From: Lytechinus pictus
Taxonomy: Eukaryota
Reading direction: 5' to 3'
NCBI RefSeq assembly: GCF_037042905.1
Contig: NC_087250.1
Location: 4,032,001-4,092,000 of the forward strand
DNA: 60,000 bases
Shown: piece after piece, positions 853-26,285 of the stretch
Numbering within the stretch: the first letter of the stretch is position 1
Layout of the letters: each line of letters starts with the position of its first letter
The notes under the pieces: generated by a model
The model's database searches: none
What the model saw: only the letters and a program-made list of their open reading frames with translations
Told to the model about the DNA's origin: nothing
Position numbers and translations under genes: made by a program

Positions 853-3800
853 CTGCAAACCATATAATGATAATAATGATATAAAAATATATATTATTAA
901 GAATATATACTAAAAATACAATGATGATAGATATGCAGAATTGATGATAATAATGATTTGTAATTGTTTGTAAATTTGATCTTTTAGTGAAATATTTTAA
1001 CACATAAACATGCAAAATAATTATAACTATAGTTAAAACAATAAGGTTCTGATAATAATCAAAATGACAGTAATAATAGTAAGAACAATAATAATAATAT
1101 TAATATTAATAATGATAATAATAATAATAATGATAATAATAACAATCCAATAGTTGTGAAGGAAACATTTCTCAAAGAGAATTAGAAGAAAACAGAAAAC
1201 AAACCCATTGACTGTTGTTAGGCTAATAACACAAATGCTTCCCATGATTCTGAACAAATGTAAAAGCATTTTTGCATCAAAAAGAAGCAACCAAAAAACA
1301 TAAATATGTACCAAATACCTGAGCTAGATGATTCAAAGTCATTTGCTTTTCCAAAAGGAAACTGAATCGAGCAGCTTCTGCATTAAACAAAAATAGTAAT
1401 AAAACAAGATATAGCTACATATCAATTTACCATTATTTTGTACCATAACTCTTTCGTCGATAATAAAATTAGAGAGAAGGCGGAAGAAAAGGGGAGGGAA
1501 TAGGCTGAGTGGTGGTAACCGGGAAGGAGGAACGTGAACATAATACAAATATTCTTCGTTTTATTGGTTGTATGTGGGTTTATTGAGCACCTAAAAAAAC
1601 ACTTAATCTCTCTAAGTAAGTCTATTGATCCAATGCTTGATCTGAAACAAAGAAAGAAATGGATATTGAAAAGTCGTAACACCTCTGACGAACAACAACG
1701 GAAAGAGAAAGAGCGAGAGGGGGAGAGGGGCGGGAGAGGAGGGGGGGGGGGCAAGAACACCTATAGTATCCGGTAATTCTCAAAGATAAAATATTGAAAG
1801 GGGTCATGAATTGTATTATACTGATTAACAGATCTGTTACCCATATTTTGCTTTTATATTTTACGAAAAAACATATTTTGCCCCCCCCCCCTGTCCTTCA
1901 AAAAACGCGCGCCCAGACCCCCATCTCCAATTTTTGCTAATCCTTCTCACATCATGGCCTTTATCTCCCATGCCCTCATCCAGGGGCGGATCTAGGATTT
2001 TCCAAAAGGGGGGGCAAATTTTTCCGAGGAAAAATTTGACAAGCAAAAAACAAAACACACACACACAAAAGAGGTCTTCACTTTCCAAGCGGGGGGGGGG
2101 GGGGCACGGACCGACTGTGCCCCCCCTGGATCCGCCACTGCCCTCATCATACTCCGAACACCACATTCCTGATGCTATAGCAACCAACACAATCCTACTT
2201 CAAAACCGACCGAAAGTTTATCATTGGTTTTAACTTAAAGGGATACTCCGGGCTGAATATATTTAAATCTGAATAGATAGAGTAAAATTCGCAAAGCAAA
2301 ATGCTGAAAATTTCATCAAAATTTAAATGACAAATAACGAAGTTATTGAATTTTAAGGCTTAGCGATATATTGTGAAAACAGTCATTTACCCGTCGTAAT
2401 GAATATTCTTTAGGTGGGCTGATGATGTAACATCCCCTTCTTTTCATTTCCTTATGTTATTACATGAATTCATAATTGTTTCATTTTTTTCAAACACATG
2501 TGCATGGTATGTCTCGCTTGTAATGAAATAAGTGTCAGCAATGAATACCTAATGCATTAAATCAGTTGTCATTCAATTTTTTTAATTCTTGAGTAGAAAA
2601 GAATTGAATAAATCTTATTTCATATAATAAAATACAAAAGAACAAGTGGGGATATGACATCATCAGTTTGCTCAATGAATCTTCACGAAGACATGCCTAG
2701 AACTGTTTCACCGGAATAATGCAAATCTTTGAAATGCCATAACTTTGTTATTCTTTGTCCGATTTTGATCCAAATTTCAGTGTTTTGTTTGTCTGATTTT
2801 TCTTTATCTGATCAAATCATATTCTTTTCAGCCTGGCGTACCCCTTTAATTGGTATGGACATGGGCGGAAATCCCAGGGGGGACAGGGGGGACGTGTCCC
2901 CCGTACCAAAAATAGTAGGGGGGGCACAATATCAAATGTCCCCCTACTATTTTTGGTCTTTTATGATGGAGAAATATGCATCATTCACATTCGAAATAAT
3001 ACATTTATTTTGGACTAAATGACCTTACATTTTGGGTAAAAACCTTCTTTTTTGGGGCGGGGCTTGTCAAATTTTCCAGAGAGACTAAACTAAGATGAGG
3101 GGAAGACTTGGAAAATAAAAAGAATCTTTCATGTCACTATATGAAATTTTCGCTCGCGCTCGCATTGCCTGTCAGGTGATTTTTCAATATGGAGCTTAAA
3201 TATCAAGTTTGGAAGTCATTATACATTACACATTTCAACTCAGAAATCGACCTTTGTAAAAGTGACAGCTTCATGGTCTGAATATTGACATTTTCTGCTC
3301 GCACTGAGCGCTCGCAAATTTCGAATTAAGTACCTATTATTTTTGTGTATTCCATTTAGTTTGAAAAAAAAATCAAGTCTGGTTGTCAAAACGTATCAGA
3401 TAGCGCTGGCTACTCGCTCGCATTTTAATTGGCGATTTATGTATGTCTCAATATTGGTTTTCATGACTGTTTATCAAAGATTTTGGCTGGCGATTTGCGC
3501 TCGCATTAATGGTTAAAAAATATTTTGACTGATGCATTCTATTAATAATTACAAAATTGCTTGAAATGTCCAGTTTTCAGGCCATAATATCATCAGATTT
3601 CTCGCCCTCATTAGGCATTAATAAATAAGATATTAATAATTTAACGATTAAATTGTCCCTTTTGTTTCATCTCGCGCTTAGCAAGAGGAATAAGAAGATT
3701 TTCATATGACATGTCCCAATTAAGGATGTCCCGGTCCTATGTCAAAACTAGAATGACAATGAAAAATATCAGCTCTTTATTAAGTGCGATCCATATCCAC

Positions 3801-6800
3801 CTCACAATTTTCCTACAAAGTGCTTAAAATATATAGCTGAAATTGACTCTTTTTCAGATTTTTCATGATAAAAGAGGTATAGAATGCCTAGATTCTAGGT
3901 CTAAATCTGAAACACGCGCATGTTTATTCAGATATTCAACTTGTTCTCTATTCAAATCATTATCCAGTTTCAGATCACAATATCAAAAATTTTCTGCTCG
4001 CGCTTTGTGCTCACATTATTAATGTAGAAAGATCCCCTATTACTCATCCTTTTCATGATTTACAAAACATGAATAGAGTGTCCCGTTTTTAGGTCTAAAT
4101 CTCGAATTTTTCTGCTCGCGCTTCGCTTGCATCAATCGGTTAGTTATATAGCTACCCTGTTCACGATTACGAAAATTGATTAAAATTTTCGATTCTTTTT
4201 GTAGAAATGTCAACAATTTTCAGTTCGCGATTCGCGCTAGCATTATTGATTGTTGAAATATGAAACGTCCTCATGGCTAAGTGCAAGCAGTCCTTAACAA
4301 GTACCTTTTCGATCAGTTCAAATAAAAAAAAAACATTTCATGGCAGCACTTTGCACTCGCATTAATGTAAGGACCGGGTATAAGGAAGGCCCCCAATTAC
4401 TCATCCTTTTCATGATTTGCAAAACATGAATAGAGTGTCTCGTTCTTAGGTCTAAATCTCAAAATTTTCCGCTCGCGCTTCGCGTTCGCATCAATTGTTT
4501 AGTTATATACCTATTATATGTTTCAGTTACAAAAAGTGCTTAGAATTTCCATTCTTTAGGCAAAAATTTCAAAAAAATGTAAGCTCGCGCTTCGCGCTCT
4601 CATTATTTGATTGTTGAAATATGTAACGTATTCATGGCTAACCTGTTCCATCACTTTCCATCTGCTCGCACTTCGCGTTTGAAGTAATTATTTAGTTGCA
4701 TATACATATTTTTCAGGATAACAAACATTGCCCAGAATGTTCAAATTTTAGGAAAAAATACATAAAATCCCCCCCCCAAAAAAAAAAAATTGCTCGTGCT
4801 TCTCGCTCGCATTACATAGATAATGATTATGATATTATATGTTTATGTTGAATTATAAGAATAAAGCTGAAAAGTGGCCATGAGGACTACTCCTTCAATG
4901 AAACAAACAAAAATCATCTTCGAGCGTCCGATGGGGGATTAACATATGGCTGGAAAAAAAATCGCACCCCCCCCCCCATTGGCGAAGGCTGGATCCGCCC
5001 ATGTTAATTGTCCCCCCTACCTTTCGGGACAGATTTCCGCCCATGGGTATGGAGTCTGTTGCGTTCGTGTGACAGTGACATCTGCTCTGTGCGACTCTTC
5101 TTTAGCTATCAGAGCCCGATTTCAGGCGTTCCAAGTAAGATGGGCGTGAAAGGTCAGTCGTCTTTATTGTCTTATTATGTTACTAATCCAGCAAAAGACA
5201 ACATGCATCGACTCTTAATATTGGCCGCCGTTATTTTGTTACTGTTCATATTTGCTTCAGCTAAAGCTGGTGAGTACAATGTGCCAATATAGTCCAGGAT
5301 AGAAGAGGCATAACCTTGTTTTCCATATTTACAATATTTTGTGATGGTTTCTTGTCAATTCGAGGGTGCTGATTACGAATCTGAATGATGCCACTCGTGT
5401 AACCTTGAGCATTTCCCGCAAATCGGCAAAATCCAATATGGCCGCCAAAATATGCATATTACCCATGAAAATCATAAAATTGCCAGCAAATTGGCTATAA
5501 AATGTATGTAATTGTGTTGCAGGAGTGTAATACTATCTGAAAAAATAATTTTTTGGACAAAATATTTATTTCTCGATATTAAAAATGGCCACCACAGACC
5601 TCTGTATACTCTATTATGTACAATATGAATAGGGAAAATTAATTTTTCACAAAAATTATCACTAAATCGCAAGTAATTGTGATCTATGGACGACGTAATA
5701 TATGAAAATCATCAGTGCTAACACGATATATCATTTATTATGTTATGTATTTTTATTGTATTTAATATTCAAAATAGCTGCCACTGGCCCAAATAGTATT
5801 ATTTTCTATGGCAAAGGGGCCAACAAAAATCGCAAGAGTGAGCACTAAAATGCATATTATTACGAGAAACGAGTGGAATACTGACTAAAAACGCAATTGC
5901 TAACGAAATATATTATTTAATATGCCATGTATGTGATAAATGCTGTATTTTGATATTCAAAATGGCCGCCAAAGGTCCTAACAGTATTATGTACAATGAT
6001 AAAAAGAGGACCAAAGAAATCAGAAGAGTGAGCACTGAAATGCATTTATTTGTGATGAATAAATGTCCCAAATTACAATGTACATAGTACTTTTTAGGAC
6101 CTATGGCAGCTATTTTGAATTCCAAAGTACAGCATTTATTACCTCCATGACCAATATGTAATGTATTTATTTAGAAATCATATTTAAGACAATATTTTTA
6201 CTCATACATCACAATTACATGCATTTTATGATTCTCACTCTTGTGAAAAGTAAATACCTTATACGCATGTTACATAATTTAGTTAGGGCTTGTATCAGCT
6301 ATTGAATGTCAAAATACAGTATTTATCACTTACATGGCAGAAGAAATGCTATATTTATAAAAAAAAAATCATGTTTTCAAATAATGTTTTATCATACAAC
6401 AGGATTTTATGGATTTCATAGTCAAGTCAATCCAAATTCTTACAAAATTACATCTCCCCATTTCCATTGTAAATAATACTGTTAGGGCCTATTTTAGGGG
6501 CCATTTTGAATTTCAAAATACAGCATTTATCTCATGCATGACAAAAAAATGATGTTTCACTAGAAAACATGTTTTCAGACATTATTTTACTCGGTGATCA
6601 CAATTACATGCATTTTATAGTTCTTACTCTTGTGAAAATTAATTTCTCCAATCGCATTGTACATAATGTATAATACGCCTATGGCGGCAATTTTGAATGT
6701 CAAAATAAAGCATTTATCACATAAATTGCATTTATATTTCGTTAAAAATTATGTTTTTAGCCAGTATTCCTCTCGCCTATCTTATTACTACTAATATGCA

Positions 6801-9800
6801 TTTTAGTACTCACTCTTGTGATTTTCTTTTGTCCCCATTAACATTGTACATAATACTGTCAGGGCATTTGGTGGCTTTTTAAATATTAAAATGCTTCATT
6901 TATTACATACATGACATAACAAATTATACATTTCGTTAGCAATCATGTTTTCATCCATTATTTCACTAAAAATCACAATTACTTGCATTTAGTGCTCACT
7001 TTTGTGAAATGTATTTTTCCCCTTCATATTGTACATAATATAGAATACAGGGGTCTATGGCGGCCATTTTGAATATCGAGAAAATAATTTTTTTGTCAAA
7101 AATTGTTTTTCAGAGAGTATTTCACTCCTGCAACACAAACACATACATTTTATAACCAATGTGCGGGCAATTTTATGATTTTCATGGGTAATTTGCATAG
7201 TTTGGAGGCCATATTTGATTTTGCCAATTTGCGGAAAATGCTCAAGGTTACACGAGTGGCATAATTCAGATTCGTATTCAGCACCCTCGAATTGACAAGA
7301 AACTATAAAAAATATTGTATATATGAAAAAACAAGGTTTGGTAAATTTTCTATGGGGCCTATCCTTGACTAATATTTTTGCAAACTTAAAGGTCAAATTC
7401 ACCTCAGAAAAATGTTGATTTGGGTCCATAAAGAAAAATCAGACAATCAAAATGCTGTCACATGCAAAGGAGAGAATCGATGATGTCCCTCACTCACTAT
7501 TTCTTTAGTTTTTTATTGTTTGAATTATGCAATATTTCTCTTTATACAGATTTGACAATAAAGACCAACTTGACTGAACCATAACATGTTAATGGCAATT
7601 CTACAAGTTCAGGGAGAAATAAAACTTTGTTTCAGAGAATGAGGAGAAAATTAAAATATTTCATATTTCATATAATAAAATACAAAAGAAATAGTGAATG
7701 GGTGATGTCATCAGTTCCCCCATTTGCATACTAACCAACAGTGCATGTATCTGTTCTGTGAAATTAAGCGAGATTTAACAATGTCCTAACTGTCTTATTT
7801 TACATCCGATTTTGATGAAATTTTCACTGTTATGTTTGTTGAATTTTTCTCTTTTTATTCAAATCAACTTTTTTTGCTAGGGTGGACTTGTCCTTTAACT
7901 AGCAATCCATGTCCTCAGTGTCTTTCTCTGTCTGTCCTTCTCTGTCGTCAATTTAATTCATGTTTTTTTTTAAATTCATTTTCGATAAATGAAACCGAAG
8001 ATCCGCCATTGACCCCCCCCCCCCATCTTTAAGACTCATTCATATCCGTTTGGTAACTCTGTTACACTTTAAAAGCACTGAGTTAAATTCTACCCAAAAC
8101 TGGGTAGAAAGGGAACATGCATGTTTGCTGTGTATTTTCCCCCCCCCATATTTTTCAACGCAACATTGAGTTTTGCTTTTTACAAAATCAACATGCATGT
8201 CCCTATTTTACCCAATATTGGGTAAACTTTTTTTTATTGTATTGACACTGAATTTTTTGCTGATTTACTTGTATAGTGTAAAAAAACAAATCATGAGCAA
8301 TCCATTTGCAAAAAAAAAAAAACATTTGCAAAAAAAACCCCGTTTATTCGGACATCATTTTCTCTACCAAAATTCGGGGACAAAATCTTATTAAAAGACA
8401 TTCCATTATCTAAGGAAAAACCAACCTTTGGTTGTTATGTTTGAATTTGTTTTCGCTTGATAAAGACAATAAGATGTTTGACGATATTTATAGCATACAC
8501 CTTTACCATGTTTTTGATGTATGAAAAACATGCGCGTTACCATGAATACTGCATGCATGTATGCAATAAATTCTGTTACTACCTTTTCATAGTTCATGCA
8601 ACCCTGAAACTGTAAATTATTATCATCAACTTATTTCAAATGCACATTACTCTAGTTTGGGGCGAGTAAAAATGGATTGGAATAGAAAAGGTCACGTAAA
8701 GGCCAAAATAATGGTGTGGGTAGTAAAACTATTCTTTTTTGACGTGATTATTCATTTTACCCATGTAGGCAGTTCAGATGACAGTGACGGGTGTCCTCCA
8801 GTCGTTCGGTTTGGGAAGGAACTGAAGCAAACGCCTACTTATCGCAGAGATACCAAACGCTCTTATGGAAAGCCTGGCACTGAGTCTAGCCATGAAGTGA
8901 AAAAGAAGTCTTGTGAGATATCTGGTGAATTCTCTTCTTAAGCCCCGCTTTATTGTTTCAATATATCTCAAATTGGTCGAAAATCGGAAGAAACTATCTC
9001 CTCGATTGTCTTAATGGGCCCATTTATGACTAGACACTCAAAGCCAACAATAAGTCCCCCAAAATGAACTTTTAGATTTCATCGGGTTTGAAGAAAAGCA
9101 CTTCCTAAGCTTTAGAATGATGTATAACTTGCCAAAATTGATCGAAAAATAACCTACACAAGAATTCGATTCAACTTATCGAGAGCTTCAGAAGGGAGAA
9201 AACAACAATTGAAGTTGGGACATCACTAATTTAAAAGCATGATAAGTGCACCCTGCACAATCTCTATGACACTTCAAATTAGTCCGCAAAAAAACTTGTG
9301 TAAAAAAATGTATCCTGTTTTCTATTCAACTTAACAACTTGAAATTTGGACAGTGTAGAGAAGACGAATTATTTTTTTTAATAGACATTCTCACCACCAA
9401 AGACCTATTTTGGCTATATACAGTGAACCTTTCCTGATAAATTATTGTTGGTTTGGAGGTGAGGAGTCACATTAAAAAATGATAAGTATTGGATTCATTG
9501 AATGCCCTTATTGGAAACAACATAGTTCGACAGAGTGTCAACAAATCGTCAGAACGTGAAAATCTTCCATGTTGATAGAGTAACTGTCTTAAATTGGGAC
9601 TTGTTTCTAGCATCAAGACTTCATACTGTGTCATACTAAACGATTTCCATACGGGCGTTGTGTGTAATACCTAGTATTCAACACCTCCTAAGCTCTAGTC
9701 CATCCGAACAAAAACTTGCTGAAAATGGAAAAAAATCAAACAAGCACAACATTTTTTTTTTCATTGAAACAATATTCATGAAATGAGAGCAAATCTAAAT

Positions 9801-12800
9801 CGCTTCGAAATAATTATGTATTGCTTATTTCATAAATCGATGATACAATAATGGTACATACAAATAAGGGAGTCGATGATGTCAAATACTCAACAATTCT
9901 TATTAGTCTGAGTAATTCATAATTCCCCTTTTCCTCTAAAAATATCCAGAGGAAAGTGAAAATGAGCAGTGGATATGATTTATACGACTGTAACCCTAAT
10001 CACATCTGAAAAATGGCGGGACTATATGTAGAATTACACGACTCTCCATTCATGCAAGCATCATTTATATAACAACCCGTGAAACAAGGAGTCGGTGATT
10101 TTTCACTGACCAATCCACTTTGAGCCAATCAGATGCAAGGATTTCAGTAGCTGATAACAAGCAATGAGTGAGAAATCACTGATTATTATTATTAACGAAA
10201 TGCTCCCCAGATAAGCAATGGGATCCCTGCACTGGTACTGCGGCCAAGGAGAAATGTGGATTGCATGGGGTCTGCACGAATGGGACCCTTAGCGGTTATG
10301 ATTGCCAGTGCGAATGTGATCACCAAGGTCCACACTGTTCTTCAATAAGTAAGTGATGAATAATACGTAGCAAGTTACTCCATGTCTCACAGCGTGTTCA
10401 AAGTGTGTTTACAGTGTGTTCATAATGTGTTCAAAGTGTGCTCATAGTGTGTTCAAAGTGTGCTCATAGCATGTTCACAGTGTGTTCACAGTATGTCTAC
10501 AGTGTGTTCATAATGAGTTCAAAGTGTGTTCATAGTATGCTCACAGTGTGTTCACGTGTTCACAGCGTGTTCATAGTGTGCTCATAGCATGTTCATAGTG
10601 TGTTCAAAGTGTGTTCACAGTGTGCTCACAGCATGGTCATAGTGTGTTCACATTGTGTTCATAGTGTGCTCATAGCATGTTCGTAGTGTGTTCACACTGT
10701 TATCAAAGTGTGCTTATAACATGTTCACAGTGTGTTTACAGTGTGTCACAGTGTGTTCACGGGGTGTTCACAGACAATCACAGTGTGTCTGTAATGTGTC
10801 CACACTGTGTTCACAGTATATTCAAAGTGTGTTCAGTGTTATCAAAGTGTGCTTATAGCATGTTCACAGTGTGTTTACAGTGTGTCACAGTGTGTTCACA
10901 GACAATCACAGTGTGTCTGTAATGTGTCCACAATGTGTTCACAGTGTATTCACAGTGTGTTCACAGTGTGCTCATATCATGTTCATAGTGTGTTCACATT
11001 GTGTTCATAGTGTGCTCATAGCATGTTCGTAGTGCGTTCATAGTGTGTTCACATTGTTATGAAAGTGTGCTCATAGCATGTTCACAGTGTGTTCACAGTG
11101 TGTTCAAGCGGTGTTCACAGTGCTTCATGTTGTGTTCACAGTGTGTTTGTGTAGTGTCCACACTGTGTTTACAGTGTGGCCACAGTGATTTCACTGTTTG
11201 TGAATATGCACTTCATTGCCTTCTGTCACAAACCCTTGTTCTGTTTTCTTTCTCTCAAACTTTCCCTATTCTTTTTTACTTCTTTTCCTCTCTCTCACAC
11301 ATTTATGACCAAGGTGGAATTCCCTTTCAAGCTAATTTTATTATAGAGATTTCTGAGTTTGACGTAAAGTAACTAATTTTATTTATCAATAAAATAAATC
11401 TTCAAAATGATTTGAACAGTTTTATTGTAACCAGTATACGTGCTTGAATTGCGGAAATCAAAGATTTTTTCCTCTCCGACATATTTCATGAGATTCAGTT
11501 AATTAGCAATTAGCAGATTTTTTTTCGAATAATCACAATTTACCCACGTTGCTGACATTTGAATATTCTTTATGATATTTCCAGTAATATAAAACTGGAA
11601 CTAACTAGATTTATGTGATCACCAATTAACCTTATTAACTATCAGCTTAACACGATTGAAAGGCATTAACTTGAATCATTACACGACTTATTCGACCCGT
11701 ATAATTACAATTCATTAAACCCATATATACATAAAACTGTCATTTACCCCTCCCCCCAATATTTGATACTTCCATTCCTTTACATTATGATCATGCTATA
11801 ATGAAATCAAGTGTGTCGGGTTTTTTCAGACAGCGCTAATTATACAGTAAGAGGGGTAAAGCAAACTTATTTCCTCCAGTCGCCCGTGACCTGATTTTAA
11901 ATAAAATATATTTTCAAAATATGAAATAAACGAGGCATGCTCCATGCGCTTAGTTGCGGGTAAGGGCAAATTTTGTATATATTATGTCATGACAAGATAA
12001 ACATTTAATTTTTATCCTGGATATTTTTTTTCCTTTCTCATCCATCCATGTGTTTCTACCAGTTTATCGTTCTTAATACATCCGATCTTTTCGCATTTAC
12101 TACGGGGAAACTCTCTACAACGCACCAATCCTTCTAAAAATGCAAGTCAAATCACAATGTCGAGCTAAGTGGCTTTTGTCGAAAGCTGTTGGACCGGGAC
12201 GGCATCGGAATCTCTGGACAACGACGCAATTGCAATTGCTCGTCCGGTACGTGCAAATCTTCGGATGATCTGCCGTCCCGGTCCACCAATTTTCGACAAA
12301 AGCCTCTCAGCTCTCCATTGTGATTTGACCTGCATTTTCAGAGGAATCGATGCGTTGTGTAGAGAGTTTTCCCGAAGTAAATGCGAAAATTACCTATTTT
12401 TGTTTTCTAGTACTGGATCTACCAAGGCTCGGATCTCCGCTGGGGATGACTGATGGCCGGATAAGTGCGGCTCAAATACGGCTGATGTCTCATATAAGAT
12501 GCATCGCTGTTTCTACCCCTGGCATTGTGTGTGAAGATATCATGCGACACCATGCCATTATGAAATTTTTCATTTCCAGTTTCAGGCCAAGCAACATCTT
12601 CGCAGAGGTTGATTTGAAATGCCCGCATAGAATCACCGGGATCGATTCCTTATTGGCCAGTGGGGAACTGTCGCATTTCCGTTTGTCCTTAAGCGACGTC
12701 ACTGGGGAACAATTCTATGACGCTATGGACGCATGTACCAATAAAACTAAGGTATAAAATCAGGGGCAGATTGAGGATTTTGCAAAGGGGGGATTTTTTT

Positions 12801-15800
12801 GTACAGGAAAAATTGACAAGCAAAAAAGGAAAAATTGATAAATAAAACAAGAGTTATAAAACCAGAGGCGGATCTAGGATTTTCCAAGGGGGGGGGGGGT
12901 ATGCTTTTTGTACAAGAAAAATTTGACAAGCAAAAAAAAAAAAAGAATGAAACAAAGTTATGGATCCGGGATTTTCCAAGGAGGGGGGGGGAAGGCTTTT
13001 TGTAGAGGAAAAAAATTGACAAGCAAAAAAAAAAAAAAAAAAAAAAAGGTTTTCATTTGCATTGCAAATTGAGGTCCAAAAATCATTGTAACCTATGTTC
13101 GATAATTTTTTTTTTAAATGTGCATTTTATTTTTATTGTAATCCTTTATGTTTGGATGCGAAATAAATAAAAATAAACTTGAAACTTTTGTTCCACGAAA
13201 AAAATTGACAACCCCCCTAAAAAAGGGACCGCACTTGCATATTCATGACATATTCCTAAAACAAGTGTTTGTTGTACATCTCAAGGGGGGAGGGGCACGG
13301 GCCCGAAGAATGACATAACTATGTTAATTATACTTTTTAATCTACAGACATTTTCAATGAAATGCCTTGTAAAAAAAAATAAGACTTGGCCGAATTTTTT
13401 TTCATGACACCGATGGAAGAGCAAACTATTTTTTTAAATATAATCTATTTCCTGAATTATATTCATTAGGTATTTGTTGCAGGTACATATGGCCTATTAG
13501 CACCGGCTATTGCGAGGATCATCAGGATTTTGATACCAGATCCGAATATCACTCAATTTATCTCTATGGGAGTCGAATTCTATGGAACGATTGAAGGTAT
13601 ATAAAGAAATTTAAATCTAGCAATGAATAGAGTCGATGCAAAATGAGCATAATGATCGATAAAAATAAACAGCACGGTGACTTTCGATCCAGAAATGATG
13701 TTTTCAGGGGTTCCATGACATTTGCTCTGGCGACAATTGCTCCCCTGTTAATTCCAGCCACTAATGTATCTGAGACGAAATAAAGCCCGGAGCAATTGTC
13801 GCCGGTGCATATGTCGTGTCACAATTTTCATGTGGTAAAAAGAAAAGGAGAACATAAAAGAAGGAAAATGAGTAAAGAAGAAAAGAGATCATCAAAAGGG
13901 AGCTTTGGGTTGTAAAACTCTATATTTGATTTTGGTATGGATCATAAAGAAAAATACTAAATTAAAAAGTAATTCTTAGACTAAACAAAATATGATCTAA
14001 TACCAACAAACAAATTTCAACATTTACAGGAGAAGGATTGTCATTATATCAAGCAGATTGCTAGAAAAAAAAGACAATCCCAATAGCACATTTACTACAA
14101 GCACTAATTATGGCCGATGAAGTGTTTAAGGAATATACCGGGTAACTATCACCAGTCCTCGCCTGGGTGGAATGCACCACTCCTCCCTGACCTTTTTAAA
14201 GGGTGGAGGCTGGTTTGAGCATAGGGTGGTGCACATCCAGGGGAGGTGTACTAAAGTGGTATGAGGGGGGGGGGGCTGCACGTCTTGGGCAGGTGGAACT
14301 AAAGTGGTATGAGGGGCAAGGGTGCACGTCTTGGGCAGGTGGAACTAAAGTGGTATGAGGGGCAAGGGTGCACATCTAGGAGAGGTGGAACTACAGTTAG
14401 GAAAATCAGCCGCTGAAAGCAAAAGAAGGGTACATATTTCGTTTTGCTTGCCAGTGTCTGAACTCATCAGCCTCAGCGGGAGGGTGCACGCGCATCCAGT
14501 GCACCCCCAGCCGACGCCCTTGTTTTCGTTGCCGATCTTCATTAATACCCACCTAGATCCTATTTAATAAAGGCTTGTTATAAGTATAATGGCAATCAAA
14601 TTGAATGATTTCAGTAGCTTAAAACTGTTATTGCAATTTTGTTATTGTAACAAGCTTTATACACTGTAAAAAAGTTCATCCAATATTGGGTAAAATGGGA
14701 ACACGCATGTTTGCTGGGTAAAATGATACCAAATACGTTGTAAATTTTACGCAATGTTGCGCTGAAATTTACCCTTAAAACATGCATTTTGTCCAATATT
14801 GGGGGAAAAATTACCTGACATGGATGCATGTTTTAGTTCCCTTTCTACCCAATATTGGGTAAATTTTTACTCAATCATTTTTTAGAGTGTGAAAGGGCTC
14901 CTGATTTGTATTATTTATATGTTAACATTGCATACCAGTCGCAGGGCCAGTGGAAATTTCAACTCCAATGAAGGAGATCAATGGTCCCGCTATCATGCTT
15001 TACCCGCCAATACCGCCCGGTGACATCGTAATAAACTTCACCCTCCAAACTAATGGTGTCGCTAGCTTCATCGCCTGTGACCATCCAAAAGGAAGACTAG
15101 TGTCTATCGCATCAGGTCGCTGCCGTGTTCTGGGTAAGCTATATCATCAGCAAAATCAGTATTTAGAGTATCCTTCCCGAAGTATATCCCTACTGTAAAG
15201 ACCGCAGGTTACTCAACATAATTGCAAATTAAATCTTTGATCAACAAGTGCGTTTTCACAGAAGACTTACACAAATAAAGAGTTTAGTTGCAAAAGGGGT
15301 TAGGTCCACTTTGGACCATTCCGAGAAAAAACATGTTTTTTATTCTCACTTATTGCAATATTCTTATGAGAAACTAAATTGTCATGATGTACTACCCTAT
15401 CATGTGAACATATAATTGGGTATAAAAGAAATCTACCTGTCTTCTAATTTGTTCCTATATATTAAAAAAAATATATATCATAGTGGACCTAACCCCTTTT
15501 GCAAGTTAACTGAAATGAATCCAATCTCTTTTGATTAAAAAGGTGATTTTTCTTTGCCACCTTTATTCACGTTTTCATTTGAATTTCAAATTGTCTTTGG
15601 TATCATCAGAGTGACTAAAAATTTAGAGGTGTAGAGACAGAAAACAATAAAATTCATGAAAAATGGACCTAACCCCTTTTGACAAAGGAGTTCTTCAAAA
15701 GAGTTTAGTTGCAAAAGGAGTTAGGTCCACTCTAAGAAAATCATTTTTTTCAATTCTTCCATATTGCAATATTCTTATGCGAAATTGAATTTTCATGAGA

Positions 15801-18800
15801 ACATAGAATTGGGTATTAGAGAAATTTACCTGTCTTCATATTTTTTAAGATATTCTTTTCCAAAAAAAAGTCTGTGTGGACCTAACCCCTTTTGCAACTA
15901 AACTGAAATGGACCTAAACCCTTTTGAAAAAAGCGAATTTTAATTGCCATTTTAGTACACTTTTTAATAGGAATTTCAACTTTTCTTCGGTATCATCTTA
16001 AAGAGCTACTAAAAATCTATACATTAAGACATAAAAATCAAATTTGAAAAAAAATGGACCTAACCCCTTTTGCAAGTGAGCTATTATTACAGATCGAGTA
16101 AGGCCTTCTGTACGCACGTCATTGGTAGATGCCTTATGTAGCACCAGGGTGCCTTTGCGTAAAGAATTAGAACTTTTTGATTTTGCAACCATGGCAACTA
16201 CCATGGTAACATCGCTCAACAGCCAATCAAAATCAAGGTTTCGACGGTAGTTTTCATAATGACACAAATACAATAGTTCTAACTCTTTTATGATTTATGG
16301 GCCCCAATGGTCACTGTTGGAATGCGTCGTACCTACTGTCAAAGGGCCCATTTCGCAAAGTTATAAACTATAATTGCAGCTTTGCTATTATTGTAACTAT
16401 CTTGAAAACCTGAATTTCTATTGGCAGTTGGGTCATGTTACCGACCTAATGGCATATTTACAGTAGAACAGATACAATCATGGCAACGTTACCATTATGT
16501 AAACTTTGACAAAGGGTCGGGGACATCAGCAGCCAATCAAAATGACGGTTCTATGATCGATACCATAAAGGCAATTCTACCACAGTTGTAGGATAAAACG
16601 ATCCTGTTTCCCCTTTATTTTTACTTTCAGTCATTGATACGAACTGCAAAAACATGGTAAGAGTACGTTTCAAAGGAACAGCTACTGGAACTGATGAAAG
16701 GATAAGACCAGTTGAAAGCAAATACGTGCTAGTGTGGGAGCAGGATATCATCAGGAAGGAGCGACCGCTGAGGGCGCTGATCACCCTGACAGAGCTACAC
16801 AATGACACAGAGATGATCACATTTCAACCACATGGCCAGGTTGCTCGTTCACTGAACTTCTCGTGGCGCGGGGCTTCTGGCGGCGGAAGATTGGTGTCTG
16901 TTGGAGTATCAAATACTGTTGACGGACGATTCAATGATTGTGATTTAGCTGGTGGTGACGACGATGGAGATGACACTGATGGCAAAGATGGTGGCGGTTG
17001 TCGTGATGATGGTGGCAGTGTTGGCGGCGATGATGGTGATGGTGATTGTGGTATTGGCAATGATGATACTGTTGCCAGTGATAGTAAAGATGGAAATTCA
17101 CTTTCCACACATTGGACCTTTTTCTCACCACACTTCTGTGTCCCATTCCATTAACAAACGAATGCAGTGATTACACTGCCACGTGGTTGCAGAATCATGC
17201 TTTCTTAGCAATCAGGTAGACAAATCGCCATCACTTGTTATGAATTGTAGTTGTAACTTCAGCCATGTTTTACTTCAATTCAATTCAATTCAATTATATT
17301 TCAATCATAAAATCATAAGATATATACAAAGTAACATGCAACAATCGAGATTTAATCTAATGAATGAAATTGGAGACTAATATGAAAGTTAAAAAAACTT
17401 GTAAGTCATAGTCCCCCAAAACATGTCTATGATAATATTATTCAAATTCAAAATAACAAAATCTTGTTTGCTATGTACATTAATAACTGAACTTTTTGTC
17501 ATGCTTTGATGGTAAAGCAATCATTCACAGACAATTTTTCTAGTATTTCAATTTAGTGTCAAATATGGTGCTAGATTTAACACTTGATACAAGTACACTA
17601 CAAATTTGTCTACACATACACACCACGGTTTAAGTTAAACCGAAGTTCTGAATACAAGCCTTTTGATTCACAATTTGAAAAATTGATAAGGAATACTTGT
17701 CTGTCCTCACATTTCGTTTAGAAATGGAAAATATTTCAAAGCATTTTTCGATACTTCGTACTTTTCAAATTTCTACTTATTTATTTTGAACAAATGGTAC
17801 GAGTCTACTGTATTTGGTTTGTACTTATATTTGTTACCCATTTACAAAAGTAAGCTCAATGTTCTTGTTGTCCTTTTTTCATCGTTGTTTTGTATTTCTG
17901 TAGGCTATTTGTGATGTGTATGTGGAAAATGATACAGAAATAAAATAATCCAATTCATCAAAAAAGAACAATTATCTGATTATATCATGACCTCTTCCCT
18001 TCCACAAAAAGATCGAGTGTTTACGCATACATACAAATCACTAGGATTATATAATAATTTTAACTTGAAATATGCTAATGAAAGTGTCGTTAATTTCCAT
18101 TAATATTGTCAATGAAATGTAATATTGGTTTCGTATTTATTAATGATTTGTTCTTTATTCTGTAACACCATTTTAACAAGTTTCTCATAATGTTGCTCTA
18201 TGGCTTTTTTTTTTTGGGGGGGGGGTATCTGTTAATGATTACTTACAATTAAGCTTTAAAAAATTAGCTAACTAAAAATAAATATATCATATTTACATGC
18301 ATACCCTGGTTTTTCTACACGTTTGGCACCCCGGCCGCGTCAGACCAAAAGACGTTAAAAGATGGGAGCTGCTGCTACCCTGTTTGGCGTTCAACGATTA
18401 AAGGGATAGAGCCTCGTCGATCTGGCGCTGCACAGCGGCTGCCGGGCCCACGATCGATTGGGCAAAGCAAATTTTCGGAGTATTTCATTTCGTGTCTATT
18501 TCGAACAATAAAATATGGATTTTCATCATTTTTTTTTCATGTATAGTGAAATCAGGAAGCTTTGAAAACCTGATAGATCTACAGACATTTCCATTGTTTC
18601 TGGACAGTCCATTTATATTTTTCTAAATTAAATTATGAATTTTGAAAATATCTTTGAAAATATGCTAGGAATGTTTTGAAAATGTAGTGCATTGCAATGT
18701 TGATATTATGTGATAATATTAATAGTTGTATTCGTCATTTCATTATAATAATGATGATAATAATGATAATGATAATAATAATAATAATCATTATCATCAT

Positions 18801-21800
18801 CATAATAACAATAGTAATAATAATAATAAAGATTGCATAATCGAAAGCTCTCTCTATGCGCTTTACAATGTAAGACATAAATATTTACATATTATAAAGC
18901 AAAGTAATTGCAAGAAATCAACTAGCTGTAAAAATAAAACCAAGCATAATTAAATCAAAGTTAACACAAGATATTTGGCAAATAGCATGTAAATGTATAT
19001 TAATTATTGTAAGATTGGAATTTCATTCGATTTGCCTTCCATACAAACGGCCACACATATTAAACAATTCAATCGTCACAGCATCTAATAGTTCAAGTAC
19101 GTTTGTGTGTATTTTTCTCTACCTGTTCATGATGATCACGTATATGTATATAATAATAATAATAATATACAAAATTTATAAATTGCTTTACACGGAAGTT
19201 TCAAAGCACTGAGAAATAATAAGAAAAAATATACGTTCAAGATATCTCAGTAAAAGAACAACAAACAAAATGAAAGTGAAAACACTAATTAATTATACAA
19301 ACAAATATAGAGATAATCGGCGAATATACAACTTAAATATAACGGGTCGAAAGTCATGTGTGTAAATTCAAATAATCCTAATGATTAAGAACACAATCCG
19401 ACATAAAAAATCTAAACACAGTATTATGATTAAAATTAAGAATGCAAACTAACTGAGGGGTATAATTTCATACAAAACACAATGAAAGCGAAAGATAGGA
19501 TAGTGAAACTCATTAAAAGAGGTGGGTTTTAAGGAGGGACTTTAACAGTTAGTTCTAACCGCATACATTCGTAATTCCGAAGCTTCGTTATTCCGAAGGT
19601 TCGGATATTCCGAAGGTTCGTTATTCCGAAGGTTCGTATTTCCGAAGGTTCGCAATTCCGAAGGTTCGTTGATCCAAAAACGAAATGAGGTTCGAAATTC
19701 CGAAGGTTCGTTAGTCCGAAAACGAAATTATTAACGAACCTTATTTTATTTTCGGACTAACGAACCTTCGGAATAACGCCACGAATGTTCGGATTAGCGA
19801 ACCCTTTAACGTTTCGGATTAACGAACATCGAGGTATAGGCAATTTACGTGTTTCGGAATTACGAACCTTCGGAATAAAGAACCTTCGGAATTACGAACC
19901 TTCGGAATTACGAAGTGTAACCAGTTCTAACGATGGTGCCTCACGAACATTAATGGGGAGATTTTCTTTCCAGAGGTTAGGGGCAATAACTGAGGAGAAT
20001 CTGTCACCGTAGTTTGTTTTGGCCAATTGGCCACTCGCTAGAAACGATATGAATATGGGTTATCAAGAAATTCAATATCAGCGAACTGTAACCCAACATA
20101 AGTTATGCATTGACATCACCGCGCCGCCATCTTAGAGGCTTATTTACTCCATTACCTTGCATGCGTAGGTAATCTGCAGCTGGCGCATCTCTGACATCTC
20201 CGTTCCCATGTATCCCTATATCCTCTGAGGGAGGGTGCTATGAGATTGTGACGTCACATGCATACTGTCTAAATATTCATCTGGTCTTTATATGTTGAAT
20301 ATATCTATTAATCTTCTTCAGCTTTTAAACTAAGAGAAAATATTGATTTACCTTCTAATTTGACTATCTGGAGACAAGTCGGACAACTATGTAGCGCCAT
20401 CTCCAGCCAAGTGTGTAATTCTTTCGAAAACCGACGGACCACACGACCGAGGCTATCCGGCAGGGGTTGCAGTAGACCGGGTATTAGAACAGTCGATACA
20501 GCCTGCGAACAAGATAGAGAACCAATATGATATGTGTGTATGTATTCAAGTCGGATATCCGGAAACACATTCTCTACAAAAACGCCGGTGTTGATTTAAC
20601 ATCAGCCCGGTATCTATTATAAAGAGTTGAAACAACACCACTTAAGAATCAAACCGATGTTGGTTTAACAATGATTGGTGTTGTTTAAATGCCTATCTGG
20701 TGTTAGCCTCGAGGCGAATTGGTGCTGGGTACACCTCTTTGGTGTTTTCCGAAATAAATACCGAGCTGGTGTTTAATAATTGCAGGGCCCGCTGGGAGAA
20801 CAGTTTTCGGAACTGAAGTGGCTACTCTCGGTAAATATGCCGATATTATTATTATTATTATTATAAATTAACACCGGCCTTTATTTCTGCAGTGTAAGAA
20901 CGAGTGGTAAAATCCGACGTTGACAAGTCATTTTCCTATCGTAAAAATTCATTTCATTTCGGTAACCCCCCCTTCCTCCCCACCATCACCTAAAATATCT
21001 GCAAATATGGCCATATCCACCAAAATTGTAATATTGTATAATTCAAACAATAAAATACAACAGAAAAAGACACTGTGTGGCAACATCGGCTTTTCTAATT
21101 TTCATTTACCCGCTTGAAATCAGTGAAAATAAAAGTTTACCATATTACATCCGATTTCGATGAGATTTCAAATGTTTCGCTCGTTTGATTTTTCTCTATT
21201 TATCCAAATCCCACGTTTTGATGGTTGAAGTTGGGTAAGGTTCCTATTTTATAGGCCTATACACAGAAATAAAGACCTAGAGGACATGTTTGTTGGCTTA
21301 TGTTTTCTTGAAATGGTGTTGTATTTACCTTATAAAGAAGAGAATCACAAATACCAATTAACCGGGCTACTCGGTCCGATTGGAGAATCGGTTTGACGTG
21401 CGCCGGCATTCCGTGCCAGAAGTGTAGCAAATAGTGTTGAACGTCATCAAAGTTTGCCCGGATAACCGTATCTAATATCCGTTGGCAGTGAGTGCGATAC
21501 ATGACTAAGAACGTTGTTACCTGAATGAAAACAACACACGAGACGGTTGTAACGAGTATGGAGCGCAGTTTGCCAAATAGTAATGAAAACTTTGTTTATC
21601 GAAGATATGCACTGGTTTTCGATAATTGGTCGACAGTGCTTCTTTTTTCGCGGAAGTCGTTTTGCGATACACCATGTGTAAAGTCCTGTACCGACCGCAC
21701 AGAAACTTTGTTAGCGCTAACTGAGGCCCTGTTACAACCGGTAATGTGGCAGCGATGCTTAATGTTATAATAATGCACTACTTACATACTGAAATATTTT

Positions 21801-24800
21801 TGTTGACTTCACAATACGAAAGATATGACTGGGCTTACTGTTAGCGTTCTGTTAGGCTAACAACGTTTCTGTGGACCCGGCACTGGAAGGACTTGGCGAT
21901 TAACAACGTGAACAATGTTACGGAGATCATGTGGGCAAATGGCGCACCATATAGATATATGTGTGTGTGCGTGGGTGTGTCAGGGTTGTGTTTGTGAGGG
22001 TGTGATGTATGTTGGTGTGTTGGGGTTGTGTTTGTTTGTGAGGGTGTGATATATGTGGGTGTGTCGGGGTTGTGAGCGTTTGTGAGGGTGTGGTATATGT
22101 GGGTGTGTCGGGAAAGTGTTTGTTTGTGAGGGTGTGATGTATGTGGGTGTGTCGGGGTTGTGTTTGTTTGTGAGGGTGTGATGTATGTGGGTGTGTCGGG
22201 TTTGTGTTTGTTTGTGAGGGTGTGATATAAGTGGGTGTGTCAGGGTTGTGTTTGTTTGTGAGGGTGTGATATATGTGGGTGTGTCAGGGTTGTGTTTGTT
22301 TGTGAGGATGTGATGTATGTGGGTGTGTCGGGGTTGTGTTTTTTTGTGAGGGTGTGATGTATGTGGGTGTGTTGGGGTTGTGTTTGTTTGTGAGGGTGTG
22401 ATGTATGTTGGTGTGTTGGGGTTGTGTTTGTTTGTGAGGGTGTGATATATGTGGGTGTGTCGGGGTTGTGAGCGTTTGTGAGGGTGTGGTATATGTGGGT
22501 GTGTCGGGAAAGTGTTTGTTTGTGAGGGTGTGATGTATGTGGGTGCGTCGGGGTTGTGTTTGTTTGTGAGGGTGTGATATATGTGGGTGTGTCGGGGTTG
22601 TGTTTGTTTGTGAGGGTGTGATGTATGTGGGTGTGTCGGGGTTGTGTTTGTTTGTGAGGGTGTGATGTATGTGGGTGTGTCAGGGTTGTGTTTGTTTGTG
22701 AGGGTGTGATATATGTGGGTGTGTCAGGGTTGTGTTTGTTTGTGAGGATGTGATGTATGTGGGTGTGTCGGGGTTGTGTTTTTTTGTGAGGGTGTGATGT
22801 ATGTGGGTGTGTCGGGGTTGTGTTTGTTTGTGAGGGTGTGATATATGTGGGTGTGTCAGGGTTGTGTTTGTTTGTGAGGATGTGATATATGTGGGTGTGT
22901 CAGGGTTGTGTTTGTTTGTGAGGGTGTGATATATGTGGGTGTGTCGGGGTTGTGTTTGTTTGTGAGGGTGTGATATATGTGGGTGTGTCGGGGTTGTGTT
23001 TGTTTGTGATGGTGTGATGTATGTGGGTGTGTTGGGGTTGTGTTTGTTTGTGATGGTGTGATGTATGTGGGTGTGTCGGGGTTGTGTTTTTTTGTGAGGG
23101 TGTGATGTATGTGGGTGTGTCGGGGTTGTGTTTGTTTGTGAGGGTGTGATATATGTGGGTGTGTCAGGGTTGTGTTTGTTTGTGAGGATGTGATATATGT
23201 GGGTGTGTCAGGGTTGTGTTTGTTTGTGAGGGTGTGATATATGTGGGTGTGTCGGGGTTGTGTTTGTTTGTGAGGGTGTGATATATGTGGGTGTGTCGGG
23301 GTTGTGTTTGTTTGTGATGGTGTGATGTATGTGGGTGTGTTGGGGTTGTGTTTGTTTGTGAGGGTGTGATGTATGTGGGTGTGTTGGGGTTGTGTTTGTT
23401 TGTGAGGGTGTGATGTATGTTGGTGTGTCGGGGTTGTGTTTGTTTGTGAGGGTGTGATGTATGTTGGTGTGTTGGGGTTGTGTTTGTTTGTGAGGGTGTG
23501 ATGTATGTGGGTGTGTTGGGGTTGTGTTTGTTTGTGAGGGTGTGATGTATGTTGGTGTGTTGGGGTTGTGTTTGTTTGTGAGGGTGTGATATATGTGGGT
23601 GTGTCGGGGTTGTGTTTGTTTGTGATGGTGTGATGTATGTTGGTGTGTTGGGGTTGTGTTTGTTTGTGAGGGTGTGATATATGTGGGTGTGTCGGGGTTG
23701 TGTTTGTTTGTGAGGGTGTGATGTATGTTGGTGTGTTGGGGTTGTGTTTGTTTGTGAGGGTGTGATGTATGTTGGTGTGTCGGGGTTGTGTTTGTTTGTG
23801 AGGGTGTGATGTATGTTGGTGTGTTGGGGTTGTGTTTGTTTGTGAGGGTGTGATATATGTGGGTGTGTCGGGGTTGTGTTTGTTTGTGATGGTGTGATAT
23901 ATGTGGGTGTGTCGGGGTTGTGAGCGTTTGTGAGGGTGTGGTATATGTGGGTGTGTCGGGGTTGTGTTTGTTTGTGAGGGTGTGATGTATGTTGGTGTGT
24001 TGGGGTTGTGTTTGTTTGTGAGGGTGTGATGTATGTTGGTGTGTCGGGGTTGTGTTTGTTTGTGAGGGTGTGATGTATGTTGGTGTGTTGGGGTTGTGTT
24101 TGTTTGTGAGGGTGTGATATATGTGGGTGTGTCGGGGTTGTGTTTGTTTGTGATGGTGTGATATATGTGGGTGTGTCGGGGTTGTGAGCGTTTGTGAGGG
24201 TGTGGTATATGTGGGTGTGTCGGGAAAGTGTTAGTTTGTTAGGGTGTGATATTATATGGGTGTGTCAGGGTTGTGTTTGTTTGTGAGGGTGTGATATATG
24301 TGGGTGTGTCAGGGTTGTGTTTGTTTGTGAGGATGTGATATATGTGGGTGTGTCAGGGTTGTGTTTGTTTGTGAGGGTGTGATATATGTGGGTGTGTCGG
24401 GGTTGTGTTTGTTTGTGAGGGTGTGATATATGTGGGTGTGTCGGGGTTGTGTTTGTTTGTGAGGGTATGATATGTGTAGGTGTGTCGGGTTGTGTTTGTT
24501 TGTGAGGGTGTGATGTATGTGGGTGCGTCGGGGTTGTGTTTGTTTGTGAGGGTGTGATATATGTGGGTGTGTCGGGGTTGTGTTTGTTTGTGAGGGTATG
24601 ATATGTGTAGGTGTGTCGGGTTGTGTTTGTTTGTGAGGGTGTGATGTATGTGGGTGCGTCGGGGTTGTGTTTGTTTGTGAGGGTGTGATATATGTGGGTG
24701 TGTCGGGGTTGTGTTTGTTTGTGAGGGTGTGATATATGTTGGTGTGTTGGGGTTGTGTTTGTTTGTGAGGGTGTGATGTATGTTGGTGTGTTGGGGTTGT

Positions 24801-25310
24801 GTTTGTTTGTGAGGGTGTGATGTATGTGGGTGTGTCAGGGTTGTGTTTGTTTGTGAGGGTGTGATATATGTGGGTGTGTCGGGGTTGTGTTTGTTTGTGA
24901 GGGTGTGATGTATGTTGGTGTGTTGGGGTTGTGTTTGTTTGTGAGGGTGTGATGTATGTGGGTGTGTCAGGGTTGTGTTTGTTTGTGAGGGTGTGATATA
25001 TGTGGGTGTGTCAGGGTTGTGTTTGTTTGTGAGGGTGTGATGTATGTGGGTGTGTTGGGGTTGTGTTTGTTTGTGAGGGTGTGACGCACTAGCGTACCTA
25101 CGGGGAGGGGGGGGGGAAGGGGGGCACTCTGCCCCCCCTGACGAGTCACAACCCATGCAAAAACGTATCTTTGCCCCCCCCCCATGACGGGCTTGAAAAA
25201 CCTTTTTTGCCCCCCCTGACGAGCTTGAAGACCTTTTTTTTTTTTTTTTTTTTGCTTGTCATTTTTGTCATTTTTTTTCTGGTACGAAATCCTGTATTTG
25301 TGATCGAAGA

Positions 25311-25344
<34 letters not shown>

Positions 25345-26285
25345 TTTGTCAATTTTTTTCTGGTACGAAATACTTTATTTGTGATCGAAGACCTTTTTTC
25401 TTTATTTTTTTTTTTTTGCTTGTCAATTTTTTTCTGGTACGAAATCCTTTATTTGACCTTTTTTTTTTTTTTTTTTTTTTTTTGCTTGTCAAATTTTTTT
25501 TGGCGGACGGTTTTTGCCCCCCCCCTGTGGAAAATCCTAGGTACGCCACTGGTGTGACGTATGTAGATGTGTCGGGGTTGTGCTTGTCTGTGAGGGTGTA
25601 ATATACATATGTGGGTGTGTCAGGGTTGTGTTTGTGAGCGTGTGATGTAAGTGGGTGTGTCGGGGTTGTGTTTGTTTGTGAGGGTGTAATATAAGTGGGT
25701 GTGTTGGGGTTGTGTTTGTTTGTGAGGGTATGATGTATGTGGGTGTGTCGGGGTTGTGTTTGTTTGTGAGGGTGTGATATAAGTGGGTGTGTCGGGAAAG
25801 TGTTAGTTTGTGAGGGTGTGATATATGTGGGTGTGTTGGGGCTGTGTTTGTTTGTGAGGGTATGATGTATGTGGTTGTGTCCTGATTGTGTTTGTTTGTG
25901 AGGGTGTGCCCATGTGGGTGTGTCGGGAATGCAAATCCAAGTATATTTCCATAATCTGATGAAAATAAGCATTTTGACCAATAAAATGTCAGACCATTAA
26001 TCGATCAATGAAATGTCATTTTCAAAATTAAAACAAAATATAAACATTTTCTTACTAGATCCTTGGAGAAATTGCTTGGGAAGCTCATTCCTTCTATAAC
26101 GGGGAAGTTTTGGAGAAGACATGTAAGCTTTGTTCGATGTGTATACACCAGGGTTTTTCGGCTTGCTCCTTGTTTAATGGATTCCTGTATAGGGCTAAAA
26201 TGGTTTATAATCATATTAAACAAAGTTTGCTTATCTTATTGAAAATGTATGATTTGCCAGATTAAAAAGAAAGTTCTGAAATTGT

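Follow-up and report, generated by a model that had tools for sequence, protein, structure and literature searches.

A seven-exon gene probably nested antisense in the longest intron of an RFX4-like gene of the sea urchin Lytechinus pictus

Organisation of the locus

The window analysed here is a stretch of 60,000 nucleotides (nt) from the sea urchin Lytechinus pictus (RefSeq assembly GCF_037042905.1, contig NC_087250.1, positions 4,032,001 to 4,092,000). Its base composition is that of low-GC animal DNA, and Lytechinus is the match for the proteins that it encodes. Two genes are of concern: a minus-strand gene resembling RFX4, a ciliogenesis and neural transcription factor, and a plus-strand gene for a protein of 515 amino acids (aa) situated between two of its exons. 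A preliminary description of this DNA had proposed that the second gene is complete and nested antisense within an intron of the first. The window is judged likely to hold such a pair of host and nested gene, as a reading of its structure; the exon structure, open frames, domain content, colinearity and orthology of the pair are observed, and are given below for each gene in turn. Searches in the same genome were made against the 812-Mb assembly (G000), where the window is 4,032,001-4,092,000 of contig C6.

The host RFX4-like gene

The host was reconstructed on the minus strand as 13 coding exons and 12 GT-AG introns, which give a 1617-nt frame for 538 aa over a span of ~56.6 kb. This frame joins the seven exons of the N-terminal half to exon 8, exon 9 and four exons outside the window. 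Exon 1 (39456-39407), which carries the ATG, exon 4 (29191-29114) and exon 5 (26194-26056) were placed by tblastn and the joined frame, and Pfam adds to both for exon 2 (37864-37741), exon 3 (31010-30949) and exon 6 (21329-21520). The RFX DNA-binding domain is encoded by exons 2 to 4, and the BCD dimerisation domain begins in exon 6. Exon 7 (20352-20502, 151 nt) covers roughly positions 61-121 of the BCD profile and ends with ...IVKLE and a single G, in phase 1. Exon 8 (1319-1377, 59 nt), which contains an internal methionine, was identified by splice sites, tblastn and the joined frame, and exon 9 (705-852; BCD profile 132-169) by Pfam, the own-genome search and the joined frame. Exons 10-13 were located by the own-genome search on the same strand, 9-17 kb past the left edge of the window. 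The translation of the C-terminal exons is, by eye in the printed pair, identical to L. pictus XP_063956699.1.

The junction between exons 7 and 8 is central to the argument. Exon 7 is bordered by the acceptor ttcgcag and the donor gtaaat, and exon 8 by the acceptor aatgcag and the donor gtattt. The G left in phase 1 by exon 7 is completed by AA from exon 8, and the join is free of stops. Intron 7 of the 13-exon model (1378-20351, minus strand) measures 18,974 bp, contains the entire nested gene and is the longest of the 12 introns, the runner-up being 9,517 bp. Each half of the RFX4-like gene occurs as a single copy in the genome, both on one contig and strand, and the other matches to the N-terminal half are more distant RFX paralogs (42-62% identity). 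A second RFX-family locus was also noted on the same contig (C6:16,756,457-16,772,548), whose DNA-binding and BCD regions are 48-57% identical to the N-terminal half; this too is probably an RFX paralog.

The domain content was determined with Pfam. RFX_DNA_binding (PF02257) matches exon 37741-37863 at profile positions 8-48 (E 9.6e-11) and 30951-31010 at positions 49-68 (E 4.3e-7). BCD_RFX (PF25340) was scored piecewise on exons 6, 7 and 9 and not on the joined 538-aa protein: it matches the open reading frame (ORF) at 21260-21595 at positions 1-69 (E 9e-19), the ORF at 20311-20595 at positions 61-121 (E 1e-11) and exon 706-852 at positions 132-169. Queried with the upstream BCD exon, the database gave 217 proteins at E<=1e-5 out of 267 candidates, and the best 120 of these 217 are nearly all named RFX4; in UniRef, one urchin entry carries the name RFX6. 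The assignment as RFX4-like is thus taken from the source names of the best matches.

The reference for colinearity was the RFX4-like protein of Diadema antillarum (P0007, 602 aa), the sole full-length echinoid entry among the best 120 of 217. When searched by tblastn, its residues 230-286, 281-300 and 300-349 fall on 20505-20335, 1378-1319 and 855-706, in the same order. Across the whole alignment, 285 of 529 positions of the 538-aa frame are identical to P0007, and no gap interrupts the DNA-binding domain, the BCD domain or the exon 7/8 junction. BCD_RFX forms one match in the Diadema protein, at profile positions 1-262. The RFX4 proteins of D. antillarum, hemichordates and vertebrates resemble the window host in combining an RFX DNA-binding with a BCD domain, but the Diadema protein has 602 aa, whereas the host has 538 aa and a divergent C-terminal tail. 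The canonical splice sites, the stop-free join and the tblastn order bear out what the preliminary description had said of exons 20352-20502 and 1319-1377, namely that they are compatible in phase and colinear with RFX4.

The nested gene

The nested gene consists of seven plus-strand exons between 5203 and 17154 with six GT-AG introns, and its 1548 nt encode 515 aa and a stop. The model was built from splice sites and from tblastn with three Lytechinus proteins, which were found via exon 4. Exon 1 (5203-5269) supplies the ATG and a hydrophobic, signal-peptide-like leader of 22 aa, exon 2 (8769-8924, 156 nt) a basic module flanked by cysteines, and exon 3 (10211-10348) an EGF-like module whose Pfam EGF matches are all below cut-off. 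According to the family profile described below, exon 4 (12411-12751) would encode the initial two thirds of a discoidin (F5/8 type C) domain, of which exon 5 (13470-13596) presumably provides the end. A second domain begins in exon 6 (14939-15133); its remainder is encoded by exon 7 (16631-17154), together with an acidic tail rich in Gly, Asp and Cys and the stop codon (17152-17154). The coding sequence lies entirely within 1378-20351 of the minus-strand RFX4-like model, with 3.8 kb and 3.2 kb separating it from the host exons on either side. The seven GT-AG exons that had been joined into one 515-aa frame were reproduced exactly, and the product aligns gap-free with a 515-aa protein of Lytechinus variegatus.

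Some variants of this model were also considered. An in-frame ATG at 5140 (MGVK) has its own donor at 5152 (gtcagt) and would give an isoform without the signal peptide; it accounts for the start MGVK of the older L. pictus model P0001. That model has 217 aa, owes its 3' end to read-through into intron 4 and differs from the window at 8 of 214 residues aligned by tblastn. Starts at 8672 and 8711 in the exon 2 ORF were dropped, given that homologs have the upstream signal-peptide exon 5203-5269. A candidate exon at 16428-16498 was likewise rejected, as its good donor brings in nine stops, its in-frame variants have poor donors, and the orthologs are without it.

A conserved homolog of equal length exists in L. 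variegatus. Isoform X1 of LOC121416650 (XP_041466063.1, 515 aa) is identical to the nested protein at 444 of 515 positions (86.2%), with no gap and with an identity of 78.6-92.3% from exon to exon. Isoform X2 (463 aa) is without exactly exon 2, whose 156 nt are frame-neutral, and this exon skip fits the exon 2 boundaries in the window. On these comparisons the nested gene is identified as the ortholog of LOC121416650, which belongs to another species, is labelled "uncharacterized" and is placed relative to RFX4 by accession order. The identifiers of the nested gene (LOC and XP) did not occur in a literature search.

Wider relatives are few. HMMER over 1.84 billion representatives returned five proteins at E<=0.001, the L. 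pictus model and four unnamed fragments of 121-161 aa with 35-48% identity, in which the cysteine-rich modules and the discoidin core motifs are kept. Two paralogous loci were found in the same genome (C17:28,381,779-28,397,247 and C17:15,612,063-15,620,240; L012-L017). These share with the nested gene the exon 2 module, the EGF exon, the discoidin exon and the end of exon 4 (...TKV), at 34-56% identity, and lone exon-2-like modules occur at seven more places (C5, C13, two on C2, two on C8 and C9). By sequence, the nested protein is thus a predicted member of a small, lineage-restricted multigene family. The C17 paralogs have the same exon boundaries, and the nested gene most likely reached the long intron as a duplicate from its own family. 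This fits the origin described for nested genes, which, in the available parts of one account, commonly arise as duplicates landing in long introns (PMC5174743).

It was also considered whether the seven-exon frame could be non-functional, either as a duplicate in decay or as an artefact of prediction, and be open only by chance. Taken singly, the nested protein has no Pfam domain above threshold, its relatives number only five among the 1.84 billion representatives, and P0001 is both truncated and different from the window, all of which would agree with a non-functional copy. However, 515 codons are open, the six introns are canonical and the match to L. variegatus is free of indels. Its 86% identity is similar to that of the neighbouring RFX4 exons (79-93% against the same species), and the cysteine-rich modules and core motifs persist in relatives of 35-48% identity. 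Non-functionality is accordingly regarded as highly improbable.

Domains of the nested protein

The discoidin assignment comes from a profile of 11 family sequences. Against the PDB, this profile matches factor VIII C domains (E 1e-14; per-domain 3e-6 and 1.5e-4), neuropilin-2 b domains (5e-9) and lactadherin C2 (1e-5), and also factor V, and Pfam F5_F8_type_C (PF00754) matches five of the 11 members with a best E of 2.3e-5. Nested exon 4 is therefore taken, on profile evidence, to encode a divergent discoidin domain, which is likened at profile level to the C domains of factors V and VIII and the b domains of neuropilin. Exon 5 probably completes this domain; it adjoins exon 4, yet is covered by no profile match. 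Two results count against these assignments: the window's own exon 4 and 5 translations, run singly against Pfam, had no discoidin match at E<=1, and an AlphaFold2 model from the 11-sequence alignment was unusable (mean predicted local distance difference test score 29.5, predicted template modelling score 0.18).

The other modules are less distinct. The cysteine spacing of exon 3 is EGF-like by eye, and in a single-sequence scan the module stays below the Pfam gathering score (EGF_Teneurin E 0.0056, 17.2 bits against a cut-off of 24.3; EGF_2 E 0.87). For the second domain, phmmer of the L. variegatus protein P0132 against the PDB gave a best E of 0.95. An Atlas search with residues 277-445 returned Methyltransf_FA clusters at 0.89-0.90 and beta-sandwich-like structural neighbours, which serve as leads only and name no family; the second domain is possibly a beta-sandwich.

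The nearest architectural parallel is MFG-E8/lactadherin, clusters of which came top in an Atlas feature search (score 0.78, a lead only). The order of signal peptide, EGF-like module and discoidin is common to both. However, MFG-E8 has two discoidin domains and the nested protein one, and the exon 2 module, the second domain and the acidic Gly/Asp tail are extra in the latter. There is no sign of orthology, and the discoidin domain of the Lytechinus sequences is too divergent for Pfam. From its domain make-up, the nested protein probably has a secreted adhesion or ligand-binding role.

The RFX4-like gene in public annotations

Both genes already figure in public annotations as predicted proteins, the host in the form of half-genes. 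The NCBI models of L. pictus, L. variegatus and Strongylocentrotus purpuratus divide the RFX4-like gene into N-half and C-half genes exactly at intron 7. The N-half models are P0004 (S. purpuratus, 276 aa), P0005 (S. purpuratus, 298 aa, with a different terminal exon) and P0006 (L. variegatus, 262 aa, partial), the last of which runs on into the intron, as P0004 probably does too. In the window, read-through from exon 7 into the intron continues for 14 codons and then meets a stop. The C-half models of the three species (P0124, P0125, P0134, P0135 and P0136) have 260-262 aa. Among them, those of L. pictus and S. purpuratus found directly with the C-half query have 261-262 aa, and the clusters of these two supply the others, namely a 261-aa entry from L. 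variegatus and one further entry for either species.

The two kinds of model divide one domain between them. The N-half models cover BCD_RFX at profile positions 1-111/113 and the C-half models at 125-262/266; what is lost in between corresponds to the 12 exon 8 codons that lie ahead of the methionine. These codons are open in the window, 8 of the 12 are identical to Diadema, and the exon 8 acceptor has a polypyrimidine tract and a CAG in the phase left by exon 7. Because the cut falls inside one BCD domain and the pre-methionine codons are open, conserved and preceded by an acceptor in phase, the split is read as an annotation artefact or a dominant-isoform effect, which on this comparison is probably a better account of the models than two genes.

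Several observations weigh against a single spliced gene. The 20352->1377 junction is deduced by comparison, and annotation pipelines using RNA-seq joined the halves in none of the three species, so that the exon 7/8 junction may be rare or unused. All three camarodont N-half entries (262-298 aa) end just past ...KLE, and P0124 and P0125 (L. pictus and S. purpuratus) begin with MTLNHLAQ, that is, at the internal methionine of exon 8. Furthermore, the N-half and C-half accessions lie 580 numbers apart in S. purpuratus and 1423 in L. variegatus, a distance that could reflect assembly duplication or real separation.

Alternatively, the RFX4-like gene of camarodonts could be two transcription units, created by gene fission or by an obligatory internal promoter together with an intronic poly(A) site. 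The BCD domain would then be halved between two products, one of them carrying the DNA-binding domain and the other, which starts at the exon 8 methionine, the C-terminus, and the 515-aa gene would be intergenic and not nested. The models of three species split at the exact same point, in two annotation generations for S. purpuratus and L. pictus; the exon 8 methionine is present in Lytechinus, Strongylocentrotus and Diadema; and the N-halves have ends of their own, the 14-codon read-through in Lytechinus and the other terminal exon in P0005. However, two units would be cut inside a single Pfam domain, and the 12 codons, which in a fissioned gene would belong to a 5' untranslated region free to decay, have been conserved behind a strong acceptor in the phase of exon 7. 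Models that start at the first methionine of an internal exon are also typical of truncated predictions. Two transcription units are thus considered unlikely, and the single RFX4-like gene is preferred. As for the complete gene nested antisense in an RFX4 intron, colinearity, phase and orthology speak for it as originally proposed, but it is intergenic in the public annotations of three species.

Accession numbers give some indication of gene order. The nested gene and the C-half have consecutive accessions in L. pictus (XP_054757435/36), as do the partial N-half and two pieces of a second nested copy in L. variegatus (XP_041467472/73/74). In L. variegatus, 14 numbers separate the complete copy (XP_041466063/64) from the C-half (XP_041466049), and all nested and RFX4-like entries of this species are on one 47.8-Mb contig. 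If accession order is map order, which is an assumption, the succession of N-half, 3' part and 5' part of the nested gene matches the window. Two sets of models for the nested gene were noted among the L. variegatus records (P0002, P0132, P0003, P0133, P0006 and P0134). One is complete, and the other is broken into parts of 235 aa (5') and 229 aa (3') beside the partial RFX4 N-half. This double set suggests that the locus was duplicated or mis-joined in assembly.

Proposed organisation and transcription of the gene pair

The host would be a single minus-strand RFX4-like gene, its product combining the RFX DNA-binding domain with one BCD dimerisation domain, and the public N-half and C-half models would be one gene split by annotation. 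Its pre-mRNA would probably be transcribed through the nested gene and then spliced from 20352 to 1377. Intron 7 would house an independent plus-strand gene for a 515-aa extracellular protein, predicted to consist of a signal peptide, a basic Cys-flanked module, an EGF-like module, a divergent discoidin domain, a second domain and an acidic Gly/Asp tail, in that order.

Nested antisense genes in long introns are an ordinary form of organisation in animals. A figure of ~10% of Drosophila melanogaster genes in nested structures is given in the available parts of one study (PMC3814207). In the Drosophila tim2/2mit pair and in human nested genes studied for transcriptional interference, a coding gene lies wholly inside a host intron on the opposite strand, as here. 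RFX4-like transcription would run head-on through a nested unit of ~12 kb, and the signature described for such pairs, in the portions of the literature available, is that host transcripts end early and, upstream of the nested gene, retain or exonize intron sequence (PMC3786989, PMC3814207, PMC5174743, PMC3192792). The truncated urchin N-half models resemble these intron-retention and exonization signatures. For the pair in the window, interference between host and nested transcription, or their mutually exclusive expression as suggested in the preliminary description, is only a possibility. Gene structure is not dealt with in the available parts of the sea urchin RFX4 literature.

Four sequencing runs were aligned to positions 1250-21249 at 90% likeness, three of raw RNA (X3-X5) and one of contigs (X6). 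In the raw RNA runs, most aligned reads are 90-95% alike, ~92 of 100 run into unlike sequence, and depth tracks the repeats. Among the 15 listed of 1197 read joints there was no expected exon junction, and the reads are dominated by repeats. None of the listed sequencing runs truly contains the stretch, the best share of words being 0.06. The first AATAAA on the minus strand is 601 nt into intron 7 and is uninformative in AT-rich sequence.

A more far-reaching idea is that a gene fission is under way in camarodonts: head-on transcription of the nested gene might end RFX4 within intron 7, by way of cryptic polyadenylation, exonization or intron retention, while the C-terminal exons would be expressed from an internal start. 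If true, the DNA-binding half would lack a complete dimerisation domain and the dimerisation half would lack a DNA-binding domain, and the fission would explain the split at intron 7 in three species against the fused Diadema model. Searches with exon 4 or with HMMER over the 1.84 billion representatives found no S. purpuratus homolog of the nested gene. The link to interference is weak, because the S. purpuratus RFX4 is split although no nested homolog turned up there, and fission in progress is put forward as a speculative suggestion that is probably wrong.

The more immediate consequence, a useful by-product, concerns the likely mis-split of the RFX4-like gene in three urchin annotations. 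The Lytechinus and Strongylocentrotus half-genes are suggested for merging into one 13-exon gene, and such a merger would change gene counts, orthology tables and the quantification of expression in developmental models that are in wide use. In addition, the nested gene adds a small, lineage-restricted family of predicted secreted EGF-discoidin proteins, and L. pictus, which is genetically tractable, would offer a clean host/nested pair for studies of transcriptional interference.

Repeats in the introns

Several repeats were observed in the introns of both genes. A 44-bp minisatellite occupies 21971-25084 (~71 copies, 93% matches) and 25551-25927 (8.6 copies, 80% matches) and makes up much of RFX4-like intron 5. 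It is strongly G/T-skewed, with a GC skew of 0.92 in the 22-24 kb bin, and gives rise to long minus-strand ORFs that are spurious. In nested intron 3 there is an array of ~74 copies of the 11-bp repeat TCACAGTGTGT (10387-11187) with higher-order periods of 64 and 128 bp.

Inverted repeats were also found. In nested intron 1, 5338-5652 and 7000-7312 are inverted relative to each other (235 nt at 87% and 111 nt at 79%) and enclose ~1.4 kb, resembling a transposon with terminal inverted repeats. The adjoining bin, 7253-7919, has by far the deepest pile of reads among the aligned runs, and is therefore taken to be a high-copy repeat. A 94-nt inverted repeat at 12111-12364, 84% complementary with a 66-nt loop, stops 47 nt short of nested exon 4 on its upstream side and looks like a hairpin of the miniature inverted-repeat transposable element (MITE) type.

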